A stretch of DNA of 43,264 bases from Escherichia phage Minorna. Below are positions 3,495 to 29,958 of this stretch, piece after piece; position 1 is the stretch's first letter, and the number at the start of each line of letters is the position of its first letter. Location of the stretch: sequence record NC_048172.1; one strand, 5' to 3'. The notes beneath the pieces were generated by a model. The model had not been told where the DNA came from. It worked only from the letters and a program-made list of their open reading frames with translations, and searched no databases. Made by a program: the position numbers and the translations under genes.

Positions 3495-5350
3495 TATCGT
3501 CTTCCTCTATGTTGTTTGCCTCTACCCCGACCTTGCAGCCGTGCAGCGACTCCCCGCAACTGTTTCTGGACCATACCCTGTGCCCAGTCCAACGGGTTAT
3601 TGATGAATGCTAGTGCCTGCTTCTCAGACTCTCGTGCAGCTACCACTTTCTCATCTTCTACCAGATGCCCGTTCAGTACTGCTACCATCATAGCGATGGC
3701 GTCTGCTCGGTCATCCTTAGCCAAGCTACCCCGGTCATACGTAATACCTGCGAGCTGTGCGAACGCAGAGTACAACCAGCGACGATCTCGGGGGTATAGC
3801 ATACAAGTCCCAATATCATCGTGAATAGCACGCTCATGCACCACTAGGCGGTGTCGTCGAGTTACTGGACTGATTGTGTCTATGATACGACGTTCTTTCT
3901 GCGTGGTGTTGTTAATGTCACGCACACCAATACCAGCAAGGTGACGCTCTCGTAAGCGGTTCAGAATAAGCATAGACACGGTACCGTGCCCCATGTTACT
4001 CTCTACCACCATGTCAGAGATGTCTAACTCTACGCACAGGTCAATGAGCTTGTCGATATTCTCGGTGCTTACACCTCCTTGGAAGCCCCCAACTGAGAAC
4101 AGATGAATGTATGAGTTAGCAGCCCCGCCCGCAGCATAGGAGACTTCATCCCCACCACAACCAGCTGGGTCCACCACCAGCACCTTGTGCTGATACGGCA
4201 AGTGCATATCTCCGTAGAATGCCGGGAAGTACATCTGCTGACCCATAATCCCCTCATGCTCGTGCTGGTATAAGTACCGGCGGTCCGCAATGTAGGAGAA
4301 GGTCTCTGGGGAGGAATCCTGGCTACCAGAGTAAACCAGCATATCCGAAAGCTTGATACGTGTACGCATCTGGTCGGACAGGGTTGTGTCGAGCATGTAC
4401 TGCAACTGGAAGCCTTCTGGGCCGAAGTCCAACTCCTTCTCAATCAGCGCATCCTCATCGTAGCGACCCTTATCGGTGCTCTCCCCTAACGTCCCATCGA
4501 CGCCGAAGCCGGTGCGTTTATAGCCGCGCTCAATAAGCTCCCGGATATAAGGAGCAAGTGTACTTCCATATCGCTCTTCCATTTCAACAGACGGAATGCG
4601 CCCAGGCCACACGCGGACCTCGAAGCCACGTCCCGGCAGTGTTTTATAGATACTGTCCTTGGTCTGTGGTGTACCCAGGTACAGCGTATCCCCGTGCGTA
4701 CAGATGGCCGCGAAGTCTTTAGAAATCGTCAGCAGCTGCTCGCGCTGGGTTTGCGTTAAGCCGTTCTTGGTGGTCTCGATATCGTCCGGAATCAGTAGGT
4801 CCGCACGCTTCCCCTGTAGGGATGCAGTGATACCTACACAGGCTACGCTGGCGGACTTATCTAGAGGTTTCAGGTCACAGTGTACGTCGTAACCTTCAAA
4901 GGAGGTTCGGTCCCCACGTGTAGGGTCAGCCTTCAAGTAGCACAGCAGCGGCCAGGTTTCCAGCATACGAATAATTAAGTTTGCTACGTCGGAAGCCTGC
5001 TTCTCAGCACCCGACACAATCAGGATACGGCAGGATTGGTCCTGGATGAGCCTCCAGACAGCGTATAGCGCAGCTAGTGTAGACTTAGCCTCACCACGCT
5101 GTGCAGCCACCATGCGCTTCCTAGGGCCCTTCTGCATATACTCTGCAATGTCGGCTTGCATGTCCGTGAGCGTAAAGCCTAGGAAGCGCATACCTATATA
5201 TGCGAACTCCCTGAAATTACTGAGGGTAGCCGCCATCATCATGGCGATATCCTCGCGCTCCTCTTTGGGAATACTGCGCGGGTTCGCATTATAACCAGTA
5301 AGTTTCTGGTTGAGCATGCGCAGTCTTCGCGCAGTCTTCACCGATACCAT
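3494..5350 (-). CDS. terminase large subunit (T7 gp19-like DNA maturase B)
   Basis: 618-aa ORF at the position and size of T7-like large terminases, with ATPase-like N-terminal half and nuclease-like C-terminal half; directly follows the putative small subunit. Confidence 0.85.
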   Translation of the reverse strand: MVSVKTARRLRMLNQKLTGYNANPRSIPKEEREDIAMMMAATLSNFREFAYIGMRFLGFTLTDMQADIAEYMQKGPRKRMVAAQRGEAKSTLAALYAVWRLIQDQSCRILIVSGAEKQASDVANLIIRMLETWPLLCYLKADPTRGDRTSFEGYDVHCDLKPLDKSASVACVGITASLQGKRADLLIPDDIETTKNGLTQTQREQLLTISKDFAAICTHGDTLYLGTPQTKDSIYKTLPGRGFEVRVWPGRIPSVEMEERYGSTLAPYIRELIERGYKRTGFGVDGTLGESTDKGRYDEDALIEKELDFGPEGFQLQYMLDTTLSDQMRTRIKLSDMLVYSGSQDSSPETFSYIADRRYLYQHEHEGIMGQQMYFPAFYGDMHLPYQHKVLVVDPAGCGGDEVSYAAGGAANSYIHLFSVGGFQGGVSTENIDKLIDLCVELDISDMVVESNMGHGTVSMLILNRLRERHLAGIGVRDINNTTQKERRIIDTISPVTRRHRLVVHERAIHDDIGTCMLYPRDRRWLYSAFAQLAGITYDRGSLAKDDRADAIAMMVAVLNGHLVEDEKVVAARESEKQALAFINNPLDWAQGMVQKQLRGVAARLQGRGRGKQHRGRR

Positions 5351-22106: not shown

Positions 22107-24575
22107 TCAACAAAAGAAGAATGGAGATTCCAGCACTTGTCGGATGTCCAAAGTACCGATTGCAGGCATCTCTAAATCTGTGAGGTCTGCCCCTGCTTCG
22201 GCAGCTGCCCGGGTAATATCTCCAAGCAGATCGTGCTCCTCGTACAACTTCACAAACTGTTCACGGATATGTCGGTGCAGGGCATCTACATCAGCCGCAT
22301 GAGTAGCCATTGAGTCGTGAATCGGGACAATATCCAGACCCTCTGCAGCACAGAGCACCATCATGAGGTGTGTGCTATCTAGGCTATGCACAAAGTTCGG
22401 AGCAATACCGGAGGCAGCCTTGCGCTTATTACAGGTCTTAAAGTCACGGTTGTGCACCAGCACGGCAGACAAGTTCATGCAGTCAATACGTACACGCACC
22501 TCCTCTCGTTGAGAGTACCGGTTCATCACTAGCCCACCTAGCGGGGTCTTCCACTGCAGATGCTGACTAGCAGGTACACGCCTAGCGAGGTTCTGCAGAT
22601 ACCCCATAGCTGCTGCTGCTGCCGGGTTAGCTTCCTCAATAGCGCTACGCATTCTAGGGGCAAGGTAGCAGGATAAGTTCCAGAGACTGTGCGTGTCTGT
22701 TCCTTCATACCCCTCTTCACAAGCACCTGCAAAGATGTAGTCGCTGCAGCTGCGCACCGTGGCGCTGTAGAAGTAGGTCATGCTAGGACGCTTGGTCATG
22801 CTTCGAGTGATTTTGTTCTCTCTCCAGTACGTGCTCTGGATAACGAAATCCTCTTTGTCCAGGTCCAGTATCACCTTCTCGTCCGTACGGCGCTTCACGT
22901 CCATATACAGGTCCGCTTTCTTGTCGTTACCCTCCCAGTACAAGTTAGTCAGGCGCCCGCCTACAGGGTCTCTCAGGAGCGCTGAGAGGTGCTGCCCACC
23001 TGAGTTTGTAGCATCCATAGCAACTGGGATTCGGCTAATATACTCTTCTGGGCATCCAGAACGTACAGCATTAACCAAGTCGATAGCGGCTGCCAGGAAG
23101 CACCAAGGGCTGTCGGCGGAGGTAAAAGCAGGGCAATCAAAAGGAGAATCCGCGAGCTGCTCAATCTCTGCAAAGTTTGCATCAACCCAAGCTGCACGGT
23201 CTTCGAATAGGGTTTTGTCATAACCAAAGCAGGTAGCGACGTGCACTTTAAGCCAGAATAACCCTCTCTCTCCCAGAGGTTTACCTCGTCCGAATTCAAG
23301 AAGTGCCTTCTGCAGATCAGAACCTTGGGGGTGCAGTGAGGACTTGAAGTACAGCCGGTATCGCCAATCCACACAGGTTGGGAAGTACAGGGCTTTCTCA
23401 TCTTTGAATTCCTCTGCCATCTCTAGCGTGGTCAATAGGCTACGTAGTTGCGACACACGCTTACGGTCAGCGCTGTACCAAAGAGACATACGCGTCTTCC
23501 ACTCTCCGAAGCGGTCGAGTTCCTCCTCGGTGTAATTCTCTTTTGGTACACCATCTAAGTACCACTCAGGTTTCGGCTCTGGCACTGAGCGCGGCATACC
23601 TACACCAATACCTAAGGCCCGTGCTTCTTGTACCAGTTCCAGTATTCGCTTATTAATGCGATAAGGAGTTTCCTGCGCCTTATTCAGTGCCTTCTTGATA
23701 CCGTCCGCAGACTTAAATGCTTCCGCTACTTCACGCAGTCTGGCGCGGTCAATGTGTGAGTTGTGGTACGTCCCACGGTTATCGATTGGGGTGAGGTATC
23801 CACCATCCCACAGTGTAGTATGTTGCACCGGCGGCACCAGCATCGGAGGCTTCATAGTTACAGTGTCAGCAGATTCCACTAACTGCTGAAATGCTTCCAT
23901 AACATTATCTGCGGGATAGAGCATACTCAAGTTCCCGCTACCAGTCTTCCATTGGAACAGCCCTGTCTCAAACACTGCGGAACACAGCAGACGTCCCACA
24001 GAAATATTCTGAGCGTTGGTCCAAGGCTCATGCCCATAGTGCACGTTCTCAGCACTGGCGCGGAGCGTACGCAGAATGTGCGTAGGCGACTTAGTACGGC
24101 GCTCAGTGAGGTATTCATATACCCGGTCCATATACGCTGGGGCAACATTACGCAGTTGTAGGGCCAGCAGCTCTGACTGTACATTCCTACCCAGAGCGGA
24201 CATCACTGCCTGTGCTGTCTGGCGGCGACTGGCGGACTCACCAGGGGCAACACTGAACGCCTCAAACATTGTGCACAGGCTCAGAGTAGTTAGGACATCC
24301 AAGGGGACTAAGCGTAGGAATCGGCGGTACTTTCCACCGATACCCGGGGCTTTGACATTACGCATTTCCTCAATGGCTGCAGAGGCCACGTCGTACGCAG
24401 AGGTTAGCATGCGCTGAGCCATAGGCAGGTTCATAATCCCGCCGTTTTGCAGAGCATCGGTAATCAATTTGCGAGCACGTTCAATGCCGCGAATCTTGTA
24501 GGTCTCTTCAAGCTCCAACTGACGTTCCACCAGCGCTTCATCTGGTACTACAACCGTATTCAGGGCGCTAATCAT
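22107..24575 (-). CDS. single-subunit DNA-directed RNA polymerase (T7-like)
   Basis: 822-aa ORF, the size of phiKMV-type single-subunit RNAPs, at the junction of replication and structural modules; AAGGAG SD upstream of the ATG. Confidence 0.85.
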   Translation of the reverse strand: MISALNTVVVPDEALVERQLELEETYKIRGIERARKLITDALQNGGIMNLPMAQRMLTSAYDVASAAIEEMRNVKAPGIGGKYRRFLRLVPLDVLTTLSLCTMFEAFSVAPGESASRRQTAQAVMSALGRNVQSELLALQLRNVAPAYMDRVYEYLTERRTKSPTHILRTLRASAENVHYGHEPWTNAQNISVGRLLCSAVFETGLFQWKTGSGNLSMLYPADNVMEAFQQLVESADTVTMKPPMLVPPVQHTTLWDGGYLTPIDNRGTYHNSHIDRARLREVAEAFKSADGIKKALNKAQETPYRINKRILELVQEARALGIGVGMPRSVPEPKPEWYLDGVPKENYTEEELDRFGEWKTRMSLWYSADRKRVSQLRSLLTTLEMAEEFKDEKALYFPTCVDWRYRLYFKSSLHPQGSDLQKALLEFGRGKPLGERGLFWLKVHVATCFGYDKTLFEDRAAWVDANFAEIEQLADSPFDCPAFTSADSPWCFLAAAIDLVNAVRSGCPEEYISRIPVAMDATNSGGQHLSALLRDPVGGRLTNLYWEGNDKKADLYMDVKRRTDEKVILDLDKEDFVIQSTYWRENKITRSMTKRPSMTYFYSATVRSCSDYIFAGACEEGYEGTDTHSLWNLSCYLAPRMRSAIEEANPAAAAAMGYLQNLARRVPASQHLQWKTPLGGLVMNRYSQREEVRVRIDCMNLSAVLVHNRDFKTCNKRKAASGIAPNFVHSLDSTHLMMVLCAAEGLDIVPIHDSMATHAADVDALHRHIREQFVKLYEEHDLLGDITRAAAEAGADLTDLEMPAIGTLDIRQVLESPFFFC

Positions 24576-24716
24576 AGGCGCTTAATCTCCTTGGTTATGT
24601 CCGGTATTTCTAATTACTGGTTTCGACTTAACCAGAGATTGTACATCTCCAGGTAGTCATTAGCGGAGCTTTCATCACCCCGCTCTATTGCTGCTTGCCA
24701 CATCCGGTGGCACCAC

Positions 24717-25031
24717 TCACTTGGAAGCATCTTCTCGCTGCTCTAATTCCAGAATAAACAAGGCGCAACACGCGGCGTGCGCTAGATGCGGAAGCCCGCT
24801 CTCGGTATCCGTTAACTCCCCATTAGCATGCGCCGTTAGGTGGCGCAGAAGCGCGGCTTTGTACCGAGACCGCCCCTCCTCAACAGTGTGCCAGCTATGT
24901 GCTGCATACTTCTGAGCTCCGAATGTAAGTACATCACTAATGCGGAGCAACGCATTAGGGCACCCATCCAGTAGCAGATCCATACGAGGTTTGCCTGCGT
25001 CATACTTCATACCAGTACCTACTGCGCTCAT
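24717..25031 (-). CDS. putative nucleotide pyrophosphohydrolase-like protein (MazG-like / dATP-dGTP diphosphohydrolase N-domain-like)
   Basis: 104 aa; MKYDAGKPRMDLL..FGAQKYAAHSW resembles the N-terminal signature of phage dNTP pyrophosphohydrolase-like proteins as I recall it; assignment tentative. Confidence 0.4.
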   Translation of the reverse strand: MSAVGTGMKYDAGKPRMDLLLDGCPNALLRISDVLTFGAQKYAAHSWHTVEEGRSRYKAALLRHLTAHANGELTDTESGLPHLAHAACCALFILELEQREDASK

Positions 25032-25522
25032 ACTAACTCCTCCACCCCATGAGATTTTAAATCGGTCCGATGTTCCGCCACGCCGTAGTCACATACAGCG
25101 TAAGTAGTGATACCCAGTCGGCGGAAATGCTCAATCACTGCAGGACTATCGTCCCAAGCTGCTACGATATTCTCTAACCCTACCTGGTTGCGCAGGAACT
25201 CCTCTTTGATAATGATGTCCTTTCGGTTGTCGCTGTGTGACCGCATAACCAGCTTGTGGTACATAACGAAGTTCCGCTCCAGCCAGGCCTCTGTTTCGGC
25301 TCTTACTATATCCGAGCGCCCCGTCAAGATAATAACTCGCAATCCTGCTCGCACCATGCTGTTACACACGTCGATAGTGTCCTGGAATGGAGGGTCATCC
25401 TTAGAGGCTCGGTTGAACTCGTTCCAACTATCGGTCAGATGCAAATCCACAGTGGGTAGCAAGTGCAAGCGATGCTTACCATCAGCTAGTGTGCCATCCA
25501 AATCAAAGATTGCTGTCTTCAC
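25028..25522 (-). CDS. HAD-family phosphatase (polynucleotide 3'-phosphatase-like)
   Basis: 164 aa beginning MKTAIFDLDGTLADG, the HAD motif I (DxDGT) at the extreme N-terminus. Confidence 0.6.
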   Translation of the reverse strand: MKTAIFDLDGTLADGKHRLHLLPTVDLHLTDSWNEFNRASKDDPPFQDTIDVCNSMVRAGLRVIILTGRSDIVRAETEAWLERNFVMYHKLVMRSHSDNRKDIIIKEEFLRNQVGLENIVAAWDDSPAVIEHFRRLGITTYAVCDYGVAEHRTDLKSHGVEELV

Positions 25523-25941
25523 TTAATAGTCTCCCGAGCTTTGCGTCGTGCTCTAGCCTTACGGGCCTTGAGCTTCTGTGCCTGTGCCAGTTCTTCCGGC
25601 GTCTTGTGCGTATAGTATAGCATATCCGTAGGTTCGCGGTCTAGGTAATCGGCGACCCTACGTAGAGATTCAGCAATAGCCCTAGAAGATTGCATGCTAC
25701 CAACAATCCAGCGCCCAGCGGCAGATGCCACTTTGCCTTCCCCTCCATTGCACGAGCGATGAAGAGCACCCCGAATACGCCCAGTAATATGATCGTGGTC
25801 AACGACAACAGAATCACCAGTTACCCCCTTGATTGTGAAGTCCAAAGGTTTTCCACAAAGGAGGCATATGCCCCCCTGGTCTTGGGCAAGCTTAATAGCC
25901 ACGGAGCGAATTTGTGCCCGTGTAATCTTTCTTAGGGCCAT
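25519..25941 (-). CDS. recombination endonuclease VII (Holliday junction resolvase-like)
   Basis: 140 aa with Cys cluster and His/Asp motif (CLLCGKPL..VVDHDHITGRIRGALHRSCN) as in endonuclease VII-type proteins; basic C-terminus. Confidence 0.7.
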   Translation of the reverse strand: MALRKITRAQIRSVAIKLAQDQGGICLLCGKPLDFTIKGVTGDSVVVDHDHITGRIRGALHRSCNGGEGKVASAAGRWIVGSMQSSRAIAESLRRVADYLDREPTDMLYYTHKTPEELAQAQKLKARKARARRKARETIK

Positions 25942-26135
25942 ACTTCAATCTCCCCCACTACATCCAGCATAGCATTGTCGTGAATGAGAGAATCCAAATG
26001 CTCAACTGTTCTTCGATGTGTTTTGGGTGCTCGTTCACGCAACGCGTCCAGAATAGTTTCCAGTTCATCATGTTTCCCCTCATAGTATAACTCAATCGCC
26101 CGCAGGCTCATTTCCTTCGCAGACATCTTCGCCAT
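25932..26135 (-). CDS. hypothetical protein (about 67 aa)
   Basis: Start set to ATG 26135 (AGGAG about 10 nt upstream); the track ORF to 26204 overlaps the exonuclease gene extensively. Confidence 0.4.
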   Translation of the reverse strand: MAKMSAKEMSLRAIELYYEGKHDELETILDALRERAPKTHRRTVEHLDSLIHDNAMLDVVGEIEVWP

Positions 26136-28977: not shown

Positions 28978-29958
28978 TTATTTAGAACGGCCAACCCAAC
29001 GACCATCGTCGTCGAGCAGCATCGGAATTAGCTGCGGACAACCCTCTGTGATTACCAGTACGCCTAGGATTGGTTTCTTACGGGCTAACCTACCGTATGC
29101 AAAGGCCAGACTCTTACGGTCAATCAAGCAGCCTGCATACGCGCCAAAATATAGTGCCGTCGAAGACGCTGCATACTGAACTTCGAACCGCCCATGCTCG
29201 TGACCGAGAACCAGTGAAGTGCGCTCATGGGACGCATTAAGCATGAAGTCACCTGATACTTGATGCTGGAAGCGGACAGGTCCCAGCGGTGTATTAAGTA
29301 CCCAAGCATCGGCCCACGACCATGCCGGAGCACCGTGCTCAGGGAACAAGATATCGCGGTACTTCTTAATAAATTGCACCGGCAAACCGTGAGCCTTGGC
29401 GCGACGATACACCAGACTCCCGTGATTGGAATCGCATACGAGAAGATTCGGGAAGAGTTCATGCAGCTGCTCCAGTACTAACTTAGCCTTCTCCAGTTCC
29501 ACCCCGGCGCTATCCAGGTTCGGGTTGCTTTCGTGGAATGAAATAGCGTGGCCGTCAGTCTCATCCCCAACTTGTACAACCATATCCGGGCAGTAAGTGT
29601 CTCGGACAGACTCTAAGAAGTCCATAGCGTCTACGTGGGTGTAAGGGGCATGCAGATCCCCTACCACTAAGATGCGGTGACACACCTCCGGGACGAAGGT
29701 TTTACCTAGGTCATCAGTCGGACTTGGCTGTATAAGCTTTAATGCCTCCTTCATATGTGACACAGCCTTGCCCTTGCTACCACCGTGATCTAGGAATATG
29801 CTGCGCCAATACTTAACCATCTGACGATATACTACTGGCTCACTTAACCCAGCCAGCTTATTATAGGCAGCTGCAGCATCCACGTTAGAGCTATACTTGC
29901 TCAGGATGTCTACATGTTGTTCTTTGGTGAACAGCTTTATTGTGTTTAACTTAGGCAT
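28978..29958 (-). CDS. calcineurin-like metallophosphoesterase
   Basis: 326 aa with ordered metallophosphatase motifs: VVGDLHAP (GDxH), VQVGDETDGH (GDxxD), DSNHG (GNH), GHEHG. Confidence 0.7.
   Translation of the reverse strand: MPKLNTIKLFTKEQHVDILSKYSSNVDAAAAYNKLAGLSEPVVYRQMVKYWRSIFLDHGGSKGKAVSHMKEALKLIQPSPTDDLGKTFVPEVCHRILVVGDLHAPYTHVDAMDFLESVRDTYCPDMVVQVGDETDGHAISFHESNPNLDSAGVELEKAKLVLEQLHELFPNLLVCDSNHGSLVYRRAKAHGLPVQFIKKYRDILFPEHGAPAWSWADAWVLNTPLGPVRFQHQVSGDFMLNASHERTSLVLGHEHGRFEVQYAASSTALYFGAYAGCLIDRKSLAFAYGRLARKKPILGVLVITEGCPQLIPMLLDDDGRWVGRSK

Follow-up and report, generated by a model that had tools for sequence, protein, structure and literature searches.

Do three coupled genes upstream of the RNA polymerase (RNAP) gene of a podophage form one functional unit of nucleotide and DNA-end processing, or does a conserved gene stand there beside a separate pair? 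The question is raised by positions 24717 to 25941 of Escherichia phage Minorna (record NC_048172.1), a stretch of 43,264 nucleotides (nt) that is called the window below. A first-pass annotation made from the letters alone had placed there a candidate MazG-like pyrophosphohydrolase, a HAD phosphatase and an endonuclease VII-like resolvase, and had read the trio as controlling the quality of the deoxynucleoside triphosphate (dNTP) pool and processing DNA ends or branches. This reading of the three genes is supported, with qualifications. The explanation that we favour, with a probability of about 0.6, combines a core endonuclease VII gene with a separate nucleotide cassette, made up of the HAD gene and a gene of the DUF5664 family, in a DNA-metabolism operon.

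The window is the complete genome of a KP34-like Klebsiella podophage (genus Drulisvirus) and carries every long open reading frame (ORF) on the minus strand. Klebsiella phage Hope is the closest relative in GenBank (95.5% DNA identity over 3.1 kb around the locus), and the same 3.1 kb share about 88% DNA identity with many KP34-like Klebsiella phages of the genus Drulisvirus. In the direction of transcription, the locus encodes a 5'-3' exonuclease, an ORF of 67 amino acids (aa), endonuclease VII, the HAD protein, the DUF5664 protein, a 29-aa ORF and the RNAP. The three genes in question are the following:

25519..25941, minus strand: endonuclease VII-type junction-resolving nuclease (ORF3), 140 aa; PF02945, phrog_423
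25028..25522, minus strand: stand-alone PNKP-type HAD phosphatase (ORF2), 164 aa, GTG start; PF25109, phrog_415
24717..25031, minus strand: DUF5664/PF18909 (dGTP_diPhyd_N) protein (ORF1), 104 aa, a bare catalytic core; PF18909

These genes are consecutive and coupled, as had been noted, by stop/start overlaps of 4 nt (GTGA and ATGA), and each of the three starts is preceded by a purine-rich, Shine-Dalgarno-like run. They do lie upstream of the RNAP gene, though not flush with it, as a gap of 141 nt that holds the conserved 29-aa ORF separates the RNAP gene from ORF1.

Conservation of the locus and the exchangeable cassette

Endonuclease VII is at least 90% identical in 199 phage records and is therefore a core gene of the replication/recombination module. 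A search with endonuclease VII retrieved 78 viral loci, of which about 64 are Drulisvirus-like. HAD and DUF5664 are present in 14 of the ~64 and always together, while about three quarters (~48 of the ~64) instead encode a DUF3310 protein of the T7 nucleotide kinase gp1.7 family, whose N-terminal domain is variable or missing and which is in some cases accompanied by an HNH endonuclease. Homology between these variants ends exactly at the endonuclease VII stop codon on one side and 7 nt before the ORF1 stop codon on the other. Pairwise comparisons of the window genes with 12 relatives gave synonymous divergences (dS) of 0.5-2.3 for the cassette versus mostly 0.14-0.26 for endonuclease VII. The presence pattern, the breakpoints and the higher dS of the cassette therefore identify 24717..25522 as an exchangeable cassette in a conserved backbone, with the 29-aa ORF marking the right border of the swap slot. 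As the same slot holds a gp1.7-like kinase in most relatives, it is a nucleotide-metabolism locus with alternative contents. The same comparisons yielded ratios of non-synonymous to synonymous substitution (dN/dS) of 0.02-0.09 for endonuclease VII, 0.06-0.11 for HAD and 0.04-0.06 for DUF5664, and all three genes are therefore under purifying selection.

The functional unit is thus not the trio of endonuclease VII, HAD and DUF5664: judged from the distribution of the sequences, HAD and DUF5664 form a co-inherited accessory pair, present or absent together, next to a core nuclease gene. The same trio is found in some relatives, whereas most Drulisvirus-like loci lack HAD and DUF5664. One GenBank phage (L003; retrieved loci are designated by L and a number) carries the kinase in addition to HAD and DUF5664, and 30 nt from the 3' end of endonuclease VII are duplicated before its HAD gene. 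The L087 contig has a gene for a long DUF5664 protein, and the next gene encodes a DUF7768 protein (phrog_355, NDT-like).

Exchange is also visible around and within the slot. In L054-L070, endonuclease VII (at 4001-4420) is represented by divergent alleles with 53-68% aa identity to the window protein, flanked by exonuclease and RNAP genes with 90-96% identity, a pattern that indicates mosaic exchange of the core gene as well. The N-terminal domains of the slot proteins are hypervariable, either with a K-x-G-D-x-V-x-R start, cysteine-rich or missing altogether. One such domain of ~80 aa, which matches no Pfam family, is 88% identical between a DUF3310 core (L032:4420-4881) and a DUF5664 core (P0005 / L087:3001-3534), with the peptide PKAPDAV at the fusion junction. 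Homology of DUF5664 to DUF3310, suggested by the shared slot, the N-terminal domains and a (K/H)Y start, received an hhalign probability of 0.2% with shallow alignments and is not claimed. L016:4619-5101 encodes a 160-aa HNH-type endonuclease after a bare 72-aa DUF3310 core, and a remnant of this endonuclease is found in L057; L036:5361-5882 and L069:4923-5507 contain extra ORFs of 173-194 aa between the small ORF and the RNAP gene.

With an alignment of the DUF5664 core (A3), 80 loci were retrieved. HAD lies directly upstream of DUF5664 in 18 of the 80, which represent several genera including Bucovirus, with HAD identities of 42-100%. The DUF5664 start falls within 4 nt of the HAD stop in most of the 18 loci, one of which has a 266-nt gap; longer overlaps are only apparent, as the ORF starts were extended mechanically. 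Pectobacterium phage CX5 has exonuclease, HAD, DUF5664 and RNAP in this order, and endonuclease VII is not adjacent; the 160-aa CX5 gene upstream of DUF5664, considered as a candidate endonuclease VII, was identified as HAD at 58% identity. Elsewhere, DUF5664 is abutted by DUF7768/NDT-like proteins (two loci) or by an NT5C 5'(3')-deoxyribonucleotidase with an overlapping start (one locus), and further neighbours include a dUTPase just downstream (one lineage) and a metallophosphoesterase. The loci with DUF7768/phrog_355, NT5C or dUTPase partners are L087:3527-3871, L096:2657-2986, L105, L146:2429-3007 and L128:3550-4053; the NDT-like neighbour echoes an association described for phages with 2-aminoadenine (Z) genomes. 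The window itself encodes a 326-aa metallophosphoesterase (28978..29958, minus strand, phrog_221), a homologue of which lies directly upstream of DUF5664 at L111:1853-2815, and distant phiKMV-like contigs show the order endonuclease VII, metallophosphoesterase, DUF5664.

Family assignments and predicted activities

Profile searches left all three family calls standing and placed none of the proteins in an unrelated family, with PHROG matches at E-values of 1e-45 to 1e-67. ORF3 matches PF02945 (E = 3.9e-12, 46.4 bits versus a cutoff of 23.6) and phrog_423 (E = 9e-45). Its residues C26/C29/H61/C64 align on the zinc ligands C23/C26/C58/C61 of T4 endonuclease VII (1e7d), and D48/H49/H51/N65/E68 align on D40/H41/H43/N62/E65 of the same enzyme, so that both catalytic and zinc-binding residues of the proposed resolvase are present.

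ORF2 matches PF25109 (HAD_PNKP; E = 3.3e-21, 76.4 bits versus a cutoff of 27.6) and phrog_415 (E = 2e-66), and other HAD families in Pfam score only about 30 bits. The protein begins with MKTAIFDLDGT, which confirms the DxDGT motif at residues 7-11, and further HAD motifs are found at T67-G68-R69, D98/K101 and D124-D125. Among sequences in the PDB it matches Pnkp1 (4xrp, 2.6e-8) and T4 Pnkp (1ltq/5uj0). An alignment with T4-like Pnkp (A2) showed that D7, D9, T11, G68, R69, D98, R100, K101, D102 and D125 are conserved with the phosphatase half, and that the kinase half (~155 residues) has no counterpart in the 164-aa protein. As the kinase domain is missing, the label 'polynucleotide kinase' used for phrog_415, in many phage records and in the Hope record is a misnomer. 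Furthermore, a 13-aa insert (DGKHRLHLLPTVD) directly follows motif I and is common to a standalone subfamily found in T1-like phages, Bucovirus and Krischvirus. Shigella phage SSG23 (Krischvirus, T4-like) encodes a standalone homologue of 158 aa (L088:686-1162; 39% identity, motif DLDFT) directly downstream of nrdB, the gene for the small subunit of ribonucleotide reductase; a second match to the query elsewhere in that genome is probably the bifunctional Pnkp.

ORF1 matches PF18909 (E = 4e-34, 117 bits versus a cutoff of 27) with residues 6-100 on profile positions 3-93 of 99, and this is the only Pfam match at E-values up to 10; the MazG family PF03819 was not among the matches. DUF5664 is a large family, with 19,382 clusters at 50% identity and E <= 0.001. 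When 69 diverse members, among them the query, were aligned, K9, D11, K14, Y42, W47, R56, H64, D75, H82 and H85 proved invariant, with E72 and E77 nearly so. The canonical metal-binding helix motif of MazG is EExxE...ExxD, whereas DUF5664 has no conserved ExxE and its conserved acidic residues are D11, E72, D75 and E77. The AlphaFold model of the 104-aa protein (mean confidence score, pLDDT, 93) is all-helical, and its best structural match is AF0060, which SCOP places together with MazG in the all-alpha NTP pyrophosphohydrolase superfamily. A Foldseek search of the PDB with the model returned nothing with E < 1, phmmer and profile searches of PDB sequences returned chance matches only, NCBIfam holds no family for the protein, and a BFVD search returned members of the same family only. 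Going by the model, the protein is probably a distant relative of MazG in fold. It would act like MazG and is not a member of the MazG family; the MazG-like call, the least certain of the first-pass annotation, holds for pyrophosphohydrolase function at the level of the DUF5664 family but not for MazG proper.

A standalone DUF5664 protein of Arthrobacter phage Wayne (ALY10775.1) converts dATP, dUTP and dGTP to deoxynucleoside monophosphates (dNMPs), and the dATP/dGTP pyrophosphohydrolase of Acinetobacter phage SH-Ab 15497 combines DUF5664 with DUF550 in a fusion protein (PMC12884076, 2026). By homology, the 104-aa protein is a predicted dNTP pyrophosphohydrolase. The DUF550 domain and the PurZ context that characterize the full-length DUF5664 plus DUF550 diphosphohydrolases of Z-genome phages were not found here, and no PurZ is annotated in Hope, the closest relative. 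Some existing labels are misleading, as DUF5664 homologues are named 'endolysin; inhibits RNA polymerase' in phrog_5033 and phrog_2252, and the term 'endolysin' recurs in several GenBank records.

Substrate of the HAD phosphatase

In the favoured explanation, endonuclease VII would use a zinc-stabilised beta-beta-alpha-metal site to cut Holliday junctions or branches in replicating or recombining phage DNA, as suggested by homology with the T4 enzyme, and this resolution of branches would allow concatemers to be packaged. The cassette would be inherited as a unit in a slot reaching from the endonuclease VII stop codon to the small ORF before the RNAP gene. DUF5664, a small, all-helical and putatively metal-dependent enzyme, would split selected dNTPs into dNMP and pyrophosphate, as extrapolated from its homologue, and the HAD phosphomonoesterase would act through a phospho-Asp7 intermediate. 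Candidate substrates of HAD are the dNMP products of DUF5664 or 3'-nucleotides. Whether HAD acts on nucleotides and thereby forms a two-step nucleotide-pool module with DUF5664 is, in our estimate, close to an even bet. A nucleotide substrate is favoured because the presence and absence of HAD always coincide with those of DUF5664, because nucleotidase or NDT-like enzymes hold the partner position in other phages, and because the slot alternates with a nucleotide kinase; the standalone HAD homologue beside nrdB in a T4-like phage was also counted for a nucleotide context. Several points weigh against this explanation. The closest profiles and solved structures of HAD are polynucleotide 3'-phosphatase domains, and we know of no PNKP-type domain that acts on 5'-dNMPs, the products of DUF5664. 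HAD homologues with ~65% identity occur without DUF5664 in hundreds of T1-like phages, so HAD does not need DUF5664. In addition, the conservation of gene order among collinear phiKMV-like genomes is partly phylogenetic inertia.

As the sequence relatives of HAD are end-healing enzymes, 3'-end healing is a serious rival, to which we grant a substantial probability that stays short of even. HAD would then be a polynucleotide 3'-phosphatase that frees nicks and breaks in phage DNA (or RNA) of blocking 3'-phosphates and thereby enables polymerase or ligase to act, DUF5664 would separately sanitise the dNTP pool, and their adjacency would reflect operon packing. This fits the lead of HAD_PNKP over all other HAD families, the conservation of catalytic residues with Pnkp1 and the T4 Pnkp phosphatase domain as the best solved relatives, the position of the HAD gene in a replication/recombination module beside exonuclease and resolvase, and its occurrence in T1-like phages without DUF5664. 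It is harder to reconcile with the strict linkage of HAD and DUF5664 in Drulisvirus-like loci and the retention of the pair across genera, with the alternation of the slot with a nucleotide kinase, with the mononucleotide enzymes that are the other partners of DUF5664, and with the missing kinase domain and the lack of an annotated ligase in the Hope record. The 13-aa insert after motif I also counts against it, as does the position corresponding to T4 R176, which is not conserved in the A2 alignment. On balance, the genomic context favours a nucleotide substrate for HAD at least as much as DNA end processing. A narrower form of end healing, in which HAD repairs tRNAs that host anticodon nucleases have cut and acts on their 2',3'-cyclic or 3'-phosphate ends in the manner of the phosphatase half of T4 Pnkp, draws on the same homology to Pnkp phosphatase domains of RNA-repair systems. 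However, T4-type RNA repair (Pnkp/Rnl1) needs both a 5'-kinase and an RNA ligase, whereas neither a polynucleotide 5'-kinase domain nor an RNA ligase is annotated anywhere in the Hope genome, which makes RNA repair highly improbable.

The slot may alternatively reflect conflict with the host. The cassette would counter immunity by destroying nucleotide-derived immune products, either chain-terminating or signalling, or would replace a gp1.7-like kinase that is recognised by some Avs5 sensors. Genomes that are otherwise 95% identical differ at this hot spot by swapped cassettes and domains, as is typical of genes under arms-race selection. T7 gp1.7, which has been linked to DUF3310 (PMC10700055), activates EfAvs5, and homologues in Klebsiella phages have been noted (PMC11897194). 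Conversely, kinase and pair are not strict alternatives, as one phage carries both, and the known activity of the DUF5664 family is on canonical dNTPs (PMC12884076). An anti-defence role is possible, yet unsupported by the present data, in which matches to defence or anti-defence libraries were neither sought nor found, and we rate it as improbable. Slightly less improbable, though still unlikely, is an elaboration of the favoured explanation that assumes a dedicated two-step pathway in canonical-genome podophages, in which DUF5664 converts dNTP to dNMP and HAD converts dNMP to the deoxynucleoside, with NT5C or NDT-like enzymes taking the second step elsewhere. Such a pathway would remove certain nucleotides, canonical or non-canonical, and would be swapped against the gp1.7-like kinase, perhaps driven by sensors such as Avs5.

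Neighbouring genes and known systems

Three further features adjoin the trio:

24614..24703, minus strand: conserved 29-aa ORF (MWQAAIERGDESSANDYLEMYNLWLSRNQ) between cassette and RNAP gene; phrog_1312
25932..26135, minus strand: 67-aa ORF (phrog_6923); its last 10 nt overlap the start of endonuclease VII
22107..24575, minus strand: single-subunit phage RNAP, 822 aa; PF00940 (E = 3.7e-90), phrog_414 (E = 8e-277)

The 29-aa ORF matches phrog_1312 (E = 1.2e-12), has a dN/dS of 0.13-0.31, is annotated as a coding sequence in the Hope record and is kept in almost all relatives with 72-93% aa identity. It had no match in the Pfam copy searched; a DUF8272 Pfam match is on record for its homologue in L087. 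The match to RNAP is split by ~700-770 bp of unrelated sequence in L024 (5200-6990 + 7694-8419) and L037 (5032-6834 + 7607-8281), which suggests an insertion such as an intron, intein or homing endonuclease. Antisense ORFs on the plus strand (139, 81 and 75 aa) were rejected as genes: 36%, 5% and 7% of synonymous-codon shuffles, respectively, leave them open, one of them gains stops in relatives, and plus-strand ORFs in the region are no longer than the codon usage of the minus-strand genes would predict. Scans for sigma-70 promoters and terminators returned sites that were fewer than, or no more than, those in shuffled sequence, and therefore provide no evidence of regulatory elements inside the trio.

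The three genes as such are already known, as their families have been described, with a biochemistry that is established or in print for each, and counterparts with the same names exist in GenBank relatives. Hope (PQ374180) is annotated with endonuclease VII, 'polynucleotide kinase' and dATP/dGTP pyrophosphohydrolase in the same gene order as the window, and its proteins are 100% (ORF1) and 98.8% (HAD) identical to those encoded here; vB_KpnP_SU552A, KpV48 and phiKpS2 (Drulisvirus) share this order at about 88% DNA identity. The present analysis refines these annotations, since 'polynucleotide kinase' is wrong for the kinase-less HAD in many phage records. Furthermore, DUF5664, which has so far been characterised only in Z-genome phages, is widespread and also occurs in podophages with ordinary A genomes. 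That it is constantly paired with a phosphatase, a nucleotidase or an NDT-like protein and alternates with a gp1.7-like kinase provides a testable hypothesis on the way in which these phages shape dNTP pools, and the observations on cassette and pair are the sole part that might merit experiments.

T4 endonuclease VII (gp49) belongs to the same Pfam family as ORF3 and shares its H-N-H-type catalytic residues and zinc site. The pairwise similarity of the two is weak (phmmer E = 0.07), the T4 protein is longer (157 versus 140 aa), His replaces Cys at one of the zinc ligands in the window protein, and the latter has a Lys/Arg-rich C-terminal tail unlike the T4 enzyme. T4 Pnkp and Capnocytophaga Pnkp1 contain the DxDGT, (S/T)GR, DxRKD and DD motifs that are also found in HAD; T4 Pnkp additionally has an N-terminal P-loop 5'-kinase domain, which HAD lacks, whereas HAD has the insert after motif I. 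In contrast to the all-alpha NTP pyrophosphohydrolase superfamily, which comprises MazG, dimeric dUTPase, HisE and AF0060, the conserved residues E72, D75, E77, H82 and H85 of DUF5664 lie around the loop that precedes the last helix instead of forming an EExxE...ExxD helix. The phage Wayne protein is a standalone PF18909 protein like the one described here, and the SH-Ab 15497 enzyme differs in its fused DUF550 domain, as the 104-aa protein contains PF18909 only. Both serve the biosynthesis of Z genomes beside PurZ/PurZ0, and the partner of the Z-genome enzymes is DutZ/DmtZ, whereas the partner gene here encodes a HAD phosphatase. T7 gp1.7 (DUF3310) belongs to a different Pfam family from DUF5664 and has the opposite chemistry, phosphorylating dNMPs; its relatives fill the slot from the same endonuclease VII stop codon onwards, and the DUF3310 slot proteins and long DUF5664 proteins have interchangeable N-terminal domains.

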